From Candidatus Promineifilaceae bacterium (GTDB lineage Bacteria > Chloroflexota > Anaerolineae > Promineifilales > Promineifilaceae): a stretch of DNA of 43,235 nt. The DNA lies in assembly GCA_049281335.1 (NCBI GenBank), contig JBAPRX010000684.1, forward strand, positions 1-43,235, given 5' to 3'. Shown piece after piece: positions 28,985 to 37,196 of this stretch (positions are counted from its first letter, which is position 1; every line of letters starts with the position of its first letter). A program made the position numbers and the translations under genes. The notes below the pieces were generated by a model. That model had not been told where the DNA came from. It searched no databases and saw nothing but the letters and a program-made list of their open reading frames with translations.

Positions 28985-31261
28985 TCAAATTTCTTTGGTG
29001 GGGAGGTACTTAAATGAAGCGGCGACGAGGCCGTTTCCGTACCTGGGCAGGCATTGAACGTCGTAAACGTTTATCAAGGTTTGGGCGCGGTGGAGGATGC
29101 GAACCAGTTGACGGGCGTTGGCAACTTCTATTGTCAGAACAACGTGAAGTCGGCCGTTACCGATGCCTGGAGGCGTGTTAATGGTGGAAATATTGATCTC
29201 TTCGCTGTTGAGCAGTTCAGAGAGGTCATAGATCAAGCCGCTGCGGTCAAAAACATTTACCTGTATTGTAAAGTTACGAACCTGGTAGCTCCCTTTCCGG
29301 CCCCACGATAGTTTAATCTGGCTTCGTGTTTGTGGGTCCGGCCGTAGGGCATAGCAGCCTTCCTTATGAATGGTTACGCCGCCACCGGAGCGAATAAATC
29401 CTATGATAGTATCGCCCGGTCGGGGGTTGCAGGCTTTGCAAAGGCGAAGGTCTTTTTCGGTGGTATTGGTGACGACAAATTCCTGCCCGCTTTCGGAACG
29501 AACAGTACGGCCGACATTTCGAACCGGTTCGTCAGACCATTCCTTTTCCAAAACCATCGTGGCAACCTGGGTGGGCAGCACATCTGCTCGGCCGAGCGCG
29601 TAATATAGTTTGTCTGGCTCATCAAATTCAAGTATTTTCGCTGCTTCTTCATGAGAGAAATTGCCCATCCCTATTAACGTCAGCTCTCCTTCCAACAACT
29701 CCTTCCCCTGCTTGTAAGCTGTCTCGGCCGAAATTCGGCGGAACCAGCGGCGCACCTGGGCTTTGGCTCGGCTGGTCTTAAGGAAACCCAGATCTTCGTC
29801 CAGCCAGGTTCGTTGAACGCGCCCCCAGCCAGACTTTCCAATTCGGACGCGGTCACCATCCTTCAATGGTTTGTTCAAGGGGTATGGTTCGTCGTTGACA
29901 TACGCATTCTGACATTGATTGCCAACTTCAGAATGAATGGCGTAAGCAAAATCAATGGCTGTCGCTCCTTGGGGAAGTTCGATGACGTCTCCATTGGGAG
30001 TATACACCATGATCTGCTGGCTAAATACATCCTCCACCAGTCCTTTGACGGCGCTGCTGAACGTCTGAGATTCCAGACTGATGCTTTTGTTAACCTCAGT
30101 AATTAAGGCATCCACCTGTTTGGCAACGCCCTGCGTCCACAAAGGCGATCCGGCGTAGACCCATCGAGCCAATACCCCAATTTCAGAAACTTCGTGCATG
30201 GCAACGCTCCGAAAACGTATTTTGAGCGGTTCGCCATCGGTATAAATGACAGTGGTGTGGAGCGCCCTGTAGAGGTTCTCCCTCGGTGCGGCAATATAAT
30301 CATCAAACTGCCCCGGAACGGGCCGCCAACATTTGTGGATCAAACCCAATGCCAGATAACAAGATGATTCGTCTTCCAGAAGTATCGTGAACCTCAGGGG
30401 AACATCCATCTTGTTCAGGGAGAGAATGTCGGACTTATCTGCCAGACTCTTATACACAGAGGAGACACTTTGGTCGGAGGGTTTGACGTCCTTGACAACA
30501 AGGCCGTTTTCGACCAGCAGTTCCAGGATCTGTTCGGAGACACGGCCGTAAACGGCCTGCCGCCGGTGTATGAGCGTCTCCAACATCTGGCTAACATGGT
30601 CGAACGCCTCGTTATTCAAGACCTGGAAACTATAAGCTTCCAGCTCTGACTTTAACCACCAGATGCCCAGCCGGTTTGCCAAAGGCGCATAGACGTATAA
30701 GGTTTCGCGGGCTTTTTCCTCTTGCTTGCGGCGGGGCATGGCTCCGATGGTGCGCATGTTGTGGAAGCGGTCAAACAGTTTGACGAGCACCACACGCACA
30801 TCACCGGTCATGGCCCCGAACATCTTGTGGAGAGAAGCATCCCGAATCTCTTCCGGGGTTAGTTCGCGGCCTCTGGAAAATTCGGCCGAGACCTCTTTCA
30901 ACTTTGTCACCCCGTCTACCAACCGCATCACCTCCCCCCCAAACAGCTCCTCAATCTCTTCCAGGGAGACATAGGTGTCTTCGGCGACATCATGCAGAAG
31001 GGCGGCCATCAGCGTAGGCGCGTCCAGTTGGAAAATTGCCAGGTAGTAAGCAACAGTCAGAGGGTGAGTAAAAAATGGTTCCCCAGAGCGGCGGCGCTGG
31101 TCACCATGCACACGTTTGGCAAGTTCAAATGCCTCTCTCACCCGAAGCCGATCTTCCAGAGGGAGGTAGGTTTGTATCAATTCAAAAAACTCGAGGCCCT
31201 CCAGACTGACGTAAAAATCATCAGTCTGGAGAGACCCCGAGCTTACCAGCAGGGGAACCAT
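28985..31261 (-). CDS. relA: Bifunctional (p)ppGpp synthetase/hydrolase (RelA/SpoT homologue)
   Basis: 758 aa. HD hydrolase domain (HPLTVA...LLHDVAEDT), RelA_SpoT synthetase domain, TGS (VYTPNGDVIELPQGATAIDFAYAIH) and a C-terminal ACT-like domain. Confidence 0.95.
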   Translation of the reverse strand: MVPLLVSSGSLQTDDFYVSLEGLEFFELIQTYLPLEDRLRVREAFELAKRVHGDQRRRSGEPFFTHPLTVAYYLAIFQLDAPTLMAALLHDVAEDTYVSLEEIEELFGGEVMRLVDGVTKLKEVSAEFSRGRELTPEEIRDASLHKMFGAMTGDVRVVLVKLFDRFHNMRTIGAMPRRKQEEKARETLYVYAPLANRLGIWWLKSELEAYSFQVLNNEAFDHVSQMLETLIHRRQAVYGRVSEQILELLVENGLVVKDVKPSDQSVSSVYKSLADKSDILSLNKMDVPLRFTILLEDESSCYLALGLIHKCWRPVPGQFDDYIAAPRENLYRALHTTVIYTDGEPLKIRFRSVAMHEVSEIGVLARWVYAGSPLWTQGVAKQVDALITEVNKSISLESQTFSSAVKGLVEDVFSQQIMVYTPNGDVIELPQGATAIDFAYAIHSEVGNQCQNAYVNDEPYPLNKPLKDGDRVRIGKSGWGRVQRTWLDEDLGFLKTSRAKAQVRRWFRRISAETAYKQGKELLEGELTLIGMGNFSHEEAAKILEFDEPDKLYYALGRADVLPTQVATMVLEKEWSDEPVRNVGRTVRSESGQEFVVTNTTEKDLRLCKACNPRPGDTIIGFIRSGGGVTIHKEGCYALRPDPQTRSQIKLSWGRKGSYQVRNFTIQVNVFDRSGLIYDLSELLNSEEINISTINTPPGIGNGRLHVVLTIEVANARQLVRILHRAQTLINVYDVQCLPRYGNGLVAASFKYLPTKEI

Positions 31262-31266
31262 TATTC

Positions 31267-32019
31267 TTAGTCGCTTCTGATTTGATCTTTGTTCTTGAAG
31301 TCTACAAAACGATAGCCAACACCACGTTCCGTCAGGATATACTTGGGGTTTGACAGGTCTTTCTCGATCTTCTTTCTGAGGTAGTTGATATAGAGTCGGA
31401 GGTAATGGGTTTCATCCCGATATTCATAACCCCAGACTTTTGCCAGGAGTGTTTCATGGGGCAGAACCCAACCGGCATTTTGAATCAGGTGGCTTAGGAG
31501 GCGATATTCAGTCGGCCGTAAATCAATTCGCTCCCCGTCTACAATAACCTGGTGGCGATTGAAATCCACCGAAAGACGATCATCAATTTGCAGCACCGTG
31601 CGGGGGGTCAGTGTGGGCCAGCTTGCCCGGCGCAGCACGGCGTTAACCCGGCTGGCAAGTTCTCGCGGGCTAAAGGGCTTGGTGATGTAATCATCTGCGC
31701 CCAGTTCTAACCCCCGGATACGATCTTCTTCATCGCTTTTCACCGTCAGTAATATTACTGGAACGGTGGTGATTTCGCGGAGCAGGTGCAGGGCTTCAAA
31801 GCCGTCCATTTTGGGCATCATGACATCCATGATTACCAGGTCTGGCAAATGCTGCCGGACCTGTTCCAGGGCTTCAGAGCCGTTATTTGCTTCGATGACC
31901 TGATACCCTTCCAGTTCAAGGTTCATCCGAATGAACCGGATCATACGCGGTTCATCGTCTACGACCAGAACAAGTCTCGGCGATTCAGGTTTTAGTTTTT
32001 CAGGAACTTGCTCAACCAT
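31267..32019 (-). CDS. OmpR/PhoB-family response regulator (no cognate histidine kinase in the window)
   Basis: Receiver domain (LVVDDEPRM...[14 protein letters not shown]...ILLTVKS...ITKPF) plus a winged-helix C-terminus ([12 protein letters not shown]...[14 protein letters not shown]...ERGVGYRF). Confidence 0.93.
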
Positions 32020-37159: not shown

Positions 37160-37167
37160 AACTTCCT

Positions 37168-37196
37168 ATTATATGTTCACCCAATTGATCAAGCAA
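37168..37196 (-). promoter_or_regulatory. Candidate promoter of the kinase cluster
   Basis: Minus strand reads TTGCTT (37196..37191), a 17-nt spacer, then TATAAT (37173..37168). The ATG follows 8 nt after the -10. Confidence 0.45.

Follow-up and report, generated by a model that had tools for sequence, protein, structure and literature searches.

A conserved kinase, phosphatase, vWA, zinc ribbon-FHA, small-barrel and response regulator cassette of the Anaerolineae and its predicted likeness to the archaeal ArnA/ArnB phospho-switch

The subject of this work is a block of seven minus-strand genes in a 43,235-nucleotide stretch of DNA from a Candidatus Promineifilaceae bacterium (contig JBAPRX010000684.1 of assembly GCA_049281335.1); this whole stretch is called the window. 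The first six genes of the block encode a Ser/Thr kinase, a PP2C phosphatase, a vWA protein, a zinc ribbon-FHA (ZnR-FHA) protein, an 80-residue protein (s80) and a response regulator (RR). They were found in the same order and on the same strand in 67 of the 69 relatives' loci that have enough upstream sequence. From sequence comparison and structural models, the vWA/ZnR-FHA pair is predicted to be a bacterial counterpart of the archaeal ArnB/ArnA phospho-switch, and the cassette is proposed to be a housekeeping, fully cytoplasmic signalling unit that is conserved across filamentous Chloroflexota. The reading that we favor, whose chances we put at about even, is a core cytoplasmic switch resembling ArnC/PP2A-ArnB-ArnA, with the co-encoded RR as its output, probably reached via s80, and with the seventh gene, encoding a RelA/SpoT homologue (RSH), appended in one lineage. 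The anatomy, conservation, fold homology and motif status of the cassette were established directly and are presented first.

Six-gene core and the ArnB/ArnA-like pair

The genes of the block, taken from the open reading frame (ORF) list, are as follows.

35204-37159, minus strand: Ser/Thr kinase gene (ORF list and Pfam)
34091-35185, minus strand: PP2C phosphatase gene (ORF list and Pfam)
32778-34031, minus strand: vWA (ArnB-like) gene (ORF list and Pfam)
32276-32785, minus strand: ZnR-FHA gene, its start overlapping the vWA gene by 8 nt (ORF list and Pfam)
32019-32261, minus strand: gene for the 80-residue protein s80 (ORF list; no Pfam family)
31267-32019, minus strand: OmpR/PhoB-family RR gene (ORF list and Pfam)
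28985-31261, minus strand: long RSH gene (ORF list, Pfam and TIGR00691)

The seven coding sequences and their junctions of 18, 59, -8, 14, -1 and 5 nt had been reported in an earlier, sequence-only reading of the window. These coordinates were exact in the ORF list, and all domain assignments of that reading agreed with Pfam. The absence of a transmembrane segment, claimed there for the kinase, was found to extend to all seven proteins, as the highest 19-residue Kyte-Doolittle mean did not exceed 1.35 in any of them.

Conservation was assessed from a scan for s80 in one genome per species, which found relatives in 407 species genomes. The loci examined were the best 80 of these 407 and were analyzed by tblastn with the window proteins; 69 had enough upstream sequence for judging the core order, and 69 had enough downstream sequence for judging RSH adjacency. 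The taxon carrying the cassette is the GTDB class Anaerolineae, which corresponds to NCBI Anaerolineae plus Ardenticatenia, and the core loci span Promineifilaceae, Ardenticatenaceae, Anaerolineales, Thermanaerothrix, Bellilinea and Aggregatilineaceae. The vWA-FHA junction measured -17 to +19 nt in 77/77 loci, and the s80-RR junction was 20 nt or less in 58 of 80. The FHA-s80 spacer was the loosest within the core (median, 38 nt; more than 100 nt in 21/80). The order FHA-s80-RR was nevertheless kept in 78/78 examined loci with an FHA match, against two very different synteny backgrounds. Losses were seen at two loci: L016 (8686-9820) lost both the vWA and FHA genes and kept those for the kinase, PP2C, s80 and RR, while L027 (8612-10243) lost the vWA gene alone and kept the remaining core genes.

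The RSH gene behaved differently. It follows the RR gene in 43 of 69 loci and is missing from the other 26, and since these 26 keep the same core order, the core is deduced to consist of six genes, with RSH as a lineage-specific neighbor. The RSH-linked loci share a PIG-L gene upstream and, for some of the loci, CBM48 and UvrA genes downstream, which together make one general synteny block; the 26 loci without RSH lack that synteny too. Even within Promineifilaceae, L012 (Ca. Trichofilum) has the six-gene core without an adjacent RSH or PIG-L gene. The sequence-only reading had seen the module as coupled to both the RR and the RSH gene. The RR linkage was kept. The RSH linkage was limited to the loci just described, tracked the general synteny and was broken in L012. 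The same reading had overlooked s80 and the RR as the truly invariant partners, which emerged from the comparison of the best 80 loci.

Other genes beside the cassette were sporadic. A small Arf/Ras-like GTPase gene lies after the RR gene in an Anaerolineales-type subset (L004, L049, L076 and L085), followed in L004 only by a gene for a 78-residue CxxC protein. In L004, the kinase gene is also immediately preceded by a MoxR-like AAA+ gene, which in L072, L076 and L085 stands several kilobases upstream instead; the L004 regions concerned in these two observations are 3596-4747 and 11240-12054. The GTPase and 78-residue protein genes and the upstream MoxR gene were considered as core partners and rejected, as each occurs in only four to five loci.

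The major data for the vWA protein were its sequence matches and its structural model. The best PDB sequence match was ArnB of Sulfolobus acidocaldarius (8S05_A; phmmer E 2.8e-15, residues 48-377), and the alignment did not end with the vWA domain but ran on into the sandwich and the helices. The AlphaFold2 (AF2) model (pLDDT 91.8, pTM 0.89) consists of strands at 6-34, the vWA domain at 45-218, a beta-sandwich at 221-315 and four helices at 325-416. Foldseek ranked 4FX5, an uncharacterised actinobacterial vWA protein, first (TM 0.76), followed by ArnB (TM 0.68/0.73), ArnE (5A8J; 0.62/0.69) and then the Sec23/24 core. The MIDAS (metal ion-dependent adhesion site), which had been read as intact, comprises D52-x-S54-x-S56, T119 and D149; these residues were invariant in the 46-77 orthologues in which they could be compared. 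Two threonines of the helical bundle were also highly conserved, T364 (RLTTRLL) in 71/77 orthologues and T403 (YGTRSL) in 76/77. Both have Leu at +3, and they are candidate phosphosites for FHA binding.

Most vWA orthologues (for example, L004 8009-9484 and the proteins P0416, P0422 and P0425) carry an N-terminal DnaJ J-domain and are about 488 residues in total. The window protein has 417 residues, the J-domain having been lost in the window's lineage. The J-domain hints that, in other members of the class, Hsp70 may help to remodel the complex.

The ZnR-FHA protein has an FHA domain (Pfam E 4e-16) in which the phosphothreonine (pThr)-binding motifs G-R, S-R-x-H and T-N-G were invariant in 79 orthologues. 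Its CxxC..CxxC zinc ribbon, noted already from the letters, is C4-x2-C7-x10-C18-x2-C21, and this spacing is identical to that of C21, C24, C35 and C38 in ArnA (PMC12852372). PDB sequence matches to ArnA itself (5A8I and 8S05_C) were weak, at E 6e-4. In the archaeal system, ArnB has in its C-terminal bundle threonines that are phosphorylated by the kinase ArnC; the FHA domain of ArnA binds those pThr residues, and the zinc finger of ArnA holds a loose complex in the unphosphorylated state (PMC6509490, PMC12852372). The output of ArnAB is probably exerted via other DNA-binding proteins (PMC6509490, PMC12852372). It is this architecture that the vWA and ZnR-FHA proteins are predicted to share, a correspondence that the sequence-only reading had missed.

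The kinase consists of a Pkinase domain (residues ~35-290) fused to a PQQ_2/BamB-type beta-propeller (~337-651), as assigned by Pfam. The residues AVK67, R-D168-LKPSN, D186-F-N, T200 and T204 were kept in 71 orthologues; the variant motifs FRD and DFN retain the catalytic Asp residues, and the conserved T200 and T204 lie in the activation loop. The protein is thus predicted from its motifs to be an active Hanks-type Ser/Thr kinase with all catalytic residues. The sensor propeller was 45-82% identical across loci, and the start of the protein is conserved as MG(R/G)LTTRQ (MGGLTTRQ in the window and its nearest relative). The NCBIfam AfsK model gave a partial match, with 227 bits versus a cut-off of 1300. 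The phosphatase has a Pfam PP2C domain behind a variable, acidic, low-complexity N-terminal extension (~1-110); its motifs DGMGGH, GDSR, SDG and DN were kept in 74 orthologues, and its score against NCBIfam Stp1/IreP (NF033484), 208.7 bits, was below the cut-off of 230. The proposal that kinase, PP2C and FHA act as writer, eraser and reader is borne out to the extent that the catalytic and pThr-binding residues of all three are conserved.

The s80 family and the response regulator

Neither Pfam nor NCBIfam has a family that matches s80. Its close homologues number at least 220, all in Chloroflexota, and an exhaustive profile search gave 242 clusters at 50% identity, nearly all of about 80 residues. 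The family has the invariant motifs NPRRRDGKD(I/L)HYL and PWHRINF and an acidic C-terminal tail ending in (I/V)xF(I/V)RE. The AF2 model is a five-stranded small beta-barrel (pLDDT 84.6) with no N-terminal helix. All 50 top Foldseek matches were Sm/LSm or Hfq proteins, and all were weak (TM 0.50-0.63, E 0.02-0.3). On the basis of the model, s80 is predicted to represent an uncharacterised small beta-barrel family. The MJ1316 RNA cyclic-group end recognition domain (PF04457) matched the window s80 with 16.5 bits (E 0.014), below the gathering threshold of 26.3, and gave weak sub-threshold matches in 15 of 20 members (best E 0.0043), confined to the IPWHRINF segment. This likeness is taken as a lead only. 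The term MJ1316 was not found in the literature searched, and a PDB profile search with the family returned 2yww alone (E 0.36), which was rejected as a chance match.

The genomic contexts of more distant homologues were informative. The s80 sequence is fused to, or directly follows, kinase-propeller genes in L086, P0224 and P0263, and distant members (24% identity) directly follow an FHA gene in L088 and L089. At L086 (2975-4849), a kinase, a PQQ propeller and an s80 domain lie in one reading frame that is broken by TGA and TAG codons, which sit exactly at the expected Trp (TGG) of two propeller blades. These stops could mean that the gene is a pseudogene, that G-to-A damage or a sequencing error has occurred, or that the codons are recoded. 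Three other candidates for context evidence were set aside: a giant protein of 4425 residues (P0260) with six weak s80-like stretches, whose Pfam matches were spurious and sub-threshold; the distant homologues P0269 and P0270, whose contigs were too short; and the distant homologue at L087, where an Ig-domain protein upstream was uninformative.

The RR was the most conserved gene of the block, with 62-92% identity across loci, and its start overlaps the s80 stop codon (ATGA). Pfam matched both Response_reg (E 6e-34) and Trans_reg_C (E 1e-24). The receiver had been called intact, in agreement with the presence and conservation of D21, D22, D65, T92 and K114. The best NCBIfam matches were RpaB (232.8 bits versus a cut-off of 330), MtrA (212.2 versus 300) and YycF/WalR (202.7 versus 340). 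All are below the curated cut-offs, and by this measure the RR appears nearest to these three and a member of none. An analogy of s80 with SipA/NblS-RpaB was considered and is not claimed.

The description of the RR as an orphan is true of its gene position, as no histidine kinase-like sequence was found within 6 kb of the RR gene in 81 loci; a cognate histidine kinase may still lie elsewhere in the genome. The window itself had been reported to hold no histidine kinase, and both lines of analysis upheld this: none was found by the Pfam scan of its ORFs, including the 20 large ORFs scanned outside 25365-39441, and tblastn with the PhoR catalytic core gave no match in the window. Among those 20 ORFs, 18 are housekeeping genes (including PheST, MgtE, RecG, FakA/DegV, FabD/G/F, TatC and RNase III) and the other two match no family. 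The flanks of the block, with MoaC/MoaE and UvrA genes, are housekeeping also.

The RSH gene and transcription signals

The RSH protein has HD_4, RelA_SpoT, TGS and ACT domains by Pfam and also matches TIGR00691. It was aligned with Rel structures, with 48 linked orthologues and with 120 listed database homologues (P0271-P0390), all from the linked clade. The hydrolase motifs are intact (THPL 65-68, LHDVAED 89-95 and DRFHNMRT 164-171) and were present in most of 115 orthologues. The synthetase domain proved otherwise. The EVQIRT motif reads K347-I-R349-F-R-S in the window protein, so that the Glu is replaced by K347 and the Gln by R349, and K-x-R-x-R-[TS] stands there in each of the 112 orthologues whose motif is readable. 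The Glu that is replaced is the catalytic E324 of Bacillus subtilis Rel, where E324V is the standard synthetase-dead allele (PMC7098656). Furthermore, the GRxKH loop is lost (GRPKH to PSDQS in the window and to xPENx in relatives), AAHW has become LARW with loss of the His, both of these losses extend to all 112 orthologues, and the catalytic Asp is out of register. Hydrolase-only long RSH proteins with a retained pseudo-synthetase domain, SpoT[Hs], are known in Moraxellaceae (PMC9974481). The window protein is probably likewise a hydrolase-only Rel[Hs] and not an alarmone synthetase, a point on which its earlier designation as RelA would have to be corrected. Since the substitutions are themselves conserved, the pseudo-synthetase domain is likely regulatory.

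Three candidate transcription signals border the block.

37168..37196, minus strand: promoter-like TTGCTT-17-TATAAT upstream of the kinase gene (sequence read and conservation)
28961..28988, minus strand: perfect TTGACA-16-TATAAT promoter overlapping the RSH stop codon
28880..28906, minus strand (hairpin 28906..28887): intrinsic terminator GGCTGCC-AAAA-GGCAGC(U) with a U-tract (hairpin scan)

In a generic scan, the counts of promoter-like and terminator-like sites over the whole region equalled the shuffled expectation. Single-sequence motifs are for that reason weightless, and weight comes only from conservation across species. The promoter before the kinase gene, already pointed out in the sequence-only reading, was skipped by the generic scan because its -35 hexamer matches at only 3 of 6 bases, and it was found with the same arrangement in relatives. 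Among the PIG-L-type loci, 34 of 42 have, ahead of the kinase gene, a TTGnnn-17/18-TATAAT site with a perfect TATAAT and at least 10/12 matches. Sites with at least 10/12 matches were also seen in 11 of 25 loci without RSH, and most other loci have a perfect -10 box there too. At internal junctions, matches of this quality were found in 1/72, 4/73, 4/79 and 0/47 loci. In the window and in its nearest relative, L006, only 8 nt separate the end of the -10 box from the conserved ATG, which suggests a leaderless or near-leaderless kinase mRNA in these two; other relatives have a 25-45-nt leader with a Shine-Dalgarno sequence. In several Leptofilum-type loci, a conserved ATTAGTACCG element stands immediately 5' of the -35 box.

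The promoter at 28961..28988 was found with 12/12 matches in the RSH-CBM48 spacer of ten relatives. It also has 12/12 matches downstream of RSH in L010 and L036 and 11/12 in four further relatives, while perfect sites are expected by chance about 0.016 times per 43 kb on both strands (simple arithmetic). This conservation indicates that the clade uses sigma-70-type promoters, and the next transcription unit is predicted to begin here. The terminator that had been placed after the RSH gene is real as regards its hairpin and U-tract (dG -25.3 kcal/mol, z -3.5). It sits, however, downstream of this second, perfect promoter, and so could belong to a separate short transcript, although by its sequence it would end read-through from the RSH gene as well. 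Together with a 5' hairpin it forms a structured RNA of about 75 nt with two hairpins that starts from the 28961..28988 promoter, and this structure is kept in L006 and L007 with compensatory pairs and has no Rfam match. The region 28876-28988 (minus strand) is accordingly noted as a candidate small RNA of about 75 nt or attenuating leader before the CBM48-like gene (28452-28754). Rfam found no family at the gathering threshold on the whole window. A near-perfect TTGAC[A/G/C]-16-TATAAT at about 15085-15112 (minus strand) was observed in an ORF-poor stretch upstream of the FabD gene (13756-14664).

Transcriptional coupling of the RSH gene to the block, as previously suggested, is plausible in the window's lineage: the RR-RSH spacer had a promoter match of at least 10/12 in 0/47 and a terminator-like site in 0/48 relatives with the adjacency, and no internal promoter or terminator separates the two genes. 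The coupling is nonetheless unproven, and since intrinsic terminators are seldom detectable in the clade (6/48 after RSH and 2/29 after RR), their absence at junctions is uninformative. It is deduced that the RSH gene was appended to the 3' end of the block in the Promineifilaceae/Ardenticatenaceae-type lineage to which the window belongs and is probably transcribed from the same promoter.

These data bear directly on an alternative in which the phospho-Thr module is a dedicated input into the stringent response, with the module proteins regulating RSH or with RSH as their output. The RSH gene lies directly behind the RR gene in the 43 species loci, with a 5-nt spacer in the window and spacers clear of signals, and the purifying selection on K-x-R-x-R suggests a retained regulatory role. 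On the other hand, the spacer grows to about 260-280 nt in relatives, the core exists without RSH in 26 of the 69 loci and in L012 inside Promineifilaceae, and the adjacency co-varies with the PIG-L gene and partly with CBM48 and UvrA. In addition, an RSH that lacks the synthetase Glu, Gln, G-loop Arg/Lys and His is unlikely, from its motifs, to be an alarmone source. We consider this alternative unlikely. Of the earlier proposal of phospho-Thr input into the stringent response, what stands is the adjacency without internal signals; a degenerate synthetase with an intact hydrolase means that the link is most likely co-expression of a (p)ppGpp hydrolase and not control of synthesis.

Proposed mechanism and known systems

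For the favored reading, an ArnAB-like switch with the RR as output, we infer who phosphorylates whom, the adaptor role of s80, the control of the RR and the co-transcription of the genes, the mechanism being modelled by homology on the archaeal ArnC/PP2A-ArnB-ArnA switch. An intracellular ligand or partner would be sensed by the kinase beta-propeller, and the kinase would autophosphorylate on T200 and T204. The ZnR-FHA protein, loosely held via its zinc ribbon, would clamp phosphothreonines with its FHA domain, and the switch would be reset by the PP2C phosphatase. The state of the complex would be relayed to the DNA-binding output encoded in the same block, the RpaB/MtrA/WalR-like RR, probably through the s80 beta-barrel as an adaptor. 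This role is proposed for s80 because its gene is translationally coupled to the RR gene and is elsewhere fused to the kinase propeller. For the control of the RR, sequestration and release or a direct phosphorylation on Thr can be envisaged, besides an unlinked histidine kinase acting on Asp65.

Several points weigh against this reading. Because the two loci without vWA keep the kinase, PP2C, s80 and RR, the output may not require the ArnAB-like pair. With its normal receiver, the RR may simply answer to an unlinked histidine kinase and receive no input from the kinase module. The predicted fold of s80 was assigned from weak Foldseek matches (E at least 0.02), and its adaptor role from gene order and a few fusions, of which that at L086 has two in-frame stops. 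The operon structure is read from consensus motifs only, the loss of RSH synthetase activity is likewise predicted from motifs, and the comparison covers the best 80 of the 407 relatives.

A bolder form of the scheme, which we advance only tentatively and regard as rather doubtful, is that the ArnA/ArnB-like core is a hub wiring the Hanks kinase directly into the RR, with s80 as the physical coupler, possibly binding a phosphorylated ligand or nucleotide. Such binding is suggested by the RRRDGK and PWHRI motifs and by the faint MJ1316 likeness. In one order, the operon would add a hydrolase-only RSH, and the kinase would set both the regulon and the rate of (p)ppGpp removal.

A quite improbable alternative is that the block comprises two independent syntenic units, namely, the kinase/PP2C/vWA/FHA module and an s80-RR pair under an unlinked histidine kinase. 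The loose FHA-s80 spacers, the 10-11/12 promoter-like site found in this spacer in four loci and the fully canonical receiver domain are all consistent with it. It does not readily explain the unbroken FHA-s80-RR order, nor why L016 keeps kinase, PP2C, s80 and RR after the loss of vWA and FHA. In other lineages, distant s80 genes are still found beside an FHA gene or joined to a kinase-propeller gene, and this recurrence in unrelated contexts makes a coincidence of two units unlikely. Least probable of all is a threat-sensing or conflict system of the vWA-MoxR/Esr type, in which the propeller would detect an invader and defensive transcription would follow: the parts list is shared (propeller, vWA, Ser/Thr kinase, phosphatase and zinc-finger FHA; PMC13622651, PMC7159879), four Anaerolineales-type loci have a MoxR-like AAA+ gene in the vicinity of the cassette and Anaerolineae have the filamentous habit associated with such systems, but MoxR is absent from the 43-kb window and most loci, no effector or toxin domain is encoded, each locus has a single cassette whose synteny with housekeeping neighbors is conserved, the propeller shows conservation and no diversification, and presence in 407 species genomes fits core regulation better than defence islands, which are sporadic. 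Consistent with this, PADLOC gave no match for the vWA, FHA, s80 and RSH proteins, and its matches for the kinase and PP2C catalytic domains and the receiver domain were generic and at the domain level only.

Returning to the ArnAB-like switch, its interest lies first in the output. The authors of the 2026 ArnAB structure suggest other DNA-binding proteins as the output (PMC12852372), and an ArnAB-like pair that is hard-wired across a class to a kinase, a phosphatase and a DNA-binding regulator offers a tractable place to trace FHA-vWA output. If true, the cassette would be a case of evolutionarily fixed cross-talk between Ser/Thr and His-Asp signalling, and it would give a first functional setting to a small-protein family, s80, present in more than 400 species. 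The RSH data further indicate that an abundant filamentous lineage of wastewater and sediment (Promineifilaceae and Ardenticatenaceae) appears, judging from motifs, to have a long RSH that only degrades (p)ppGpp, which raises the question of where, or whether, these families make the alarmone.

The likeness to ArnA/ArnB extends from anatomy to proposed logic. In both cases, the two partners are encoded by adjacent genes, and the vWA partner combines a MIDAS with a split beta-sandwich and, at its C terminus, a four-helix bundle with conserved Thr. For the cassette it is proposed, as in Sulfolobus, that a Ser/Thr kinase and a phosphatase act on the pair and that the output is transcriptional and indirect. 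The differences are also clear. The host here is bacterial and the context contains no archaellum; the kinase is of the Hanks type with a PQQ-type propeller rather than the OB-TPR kinase of Sulfolobus (ArnC/ArnD), and the phosphatase is PP2C rather than the PP2A of S. acidocaldarius. Here the kinase and phosphatase genes share the block with the pair, most orthologues of the vWA protein have a J-domain, and s80 and an OmpR-type regulator are fixed partners.

For the step from kinase to regulator, there is precedent in AfsK-AfsR of Streptomyces, where a soluble Hanks kinase with C-terminal PQQ repeats acts on an OmpR-type DNA-binding transcription factor. AfsR, however, is a SARP without a receiver, and AfsK-AfsR is not known to have vWA, FHA or 80-residue partners. 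Cross-talk of Ser/Thr kinases onto OmpR-family regulators such as WalR provides a precedent for Thr phosphorylation of two-component regulators. RqkA of Deinococcus radiodurans is a further kinase that also carries a PQQ-type propeller. The operon DRA0331-DRA0334 of that species combines proteins of the vWA, Ser/Thr kinase, FHA and PP2C types; FHA and PP2C are antagonistic there on kinase phosphorylation, and RqkA, one of the kinases modulated, is described as a radiation-responsive DNA-damage-sensor kinase (bioRxiv 10.64898/2026.01.23.701218). This comparison is one of architecture. The Deinococcus operon has another gene order, its PP2C has a KI-FHA domain of its own, it lacks s80, RR and RSH, and it is linked to the DNA-damage response.

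The Esr system of Actinomycetales (PMC13622651) and the vWA-MoxR ternary systems (PMC7159879) resemble the cassette in that sensing is by a propeller, a vWA protein and a kinase/phosphatase pair take part, the FHA output protein often has a zinc finger, and the response is transcriptional. They differ in requiring a MoxR ATPase and surface filament sensors, in being variable and in their link to effectors or Esx secretion, whereas the cassette described here is cytoplasmic and effector-free, is without MoxR in most loci and shows core-like conservation. The RSH gene has its closest parallel in SpoT[Hs] of Moraxellaceae (PMC9974481), another long RSH in which the HD domain is intact and a degenerate pseudo-synthetase domain has been retained. 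The RSH described here belongs to an independent lineage (Chloroflexota Rel-type) with the substitutions E to K and Q to R, and its hydrolase-only status is predicted from motifs.

A description of the cassette was not found in the literature searched. The building blocks and the FHA-vWA switch are already known, and similar four-gene operons are now appearing, as in Deinococcus (DRA0331-0334). What is new by comparison is the predicted bacterial ArnAB homology, the fixation of the cassette across a class, the invariant s80, the link to an RpaB/MtrA-like RR and the apparent lineage-wide pseudo-synthetase RSH.

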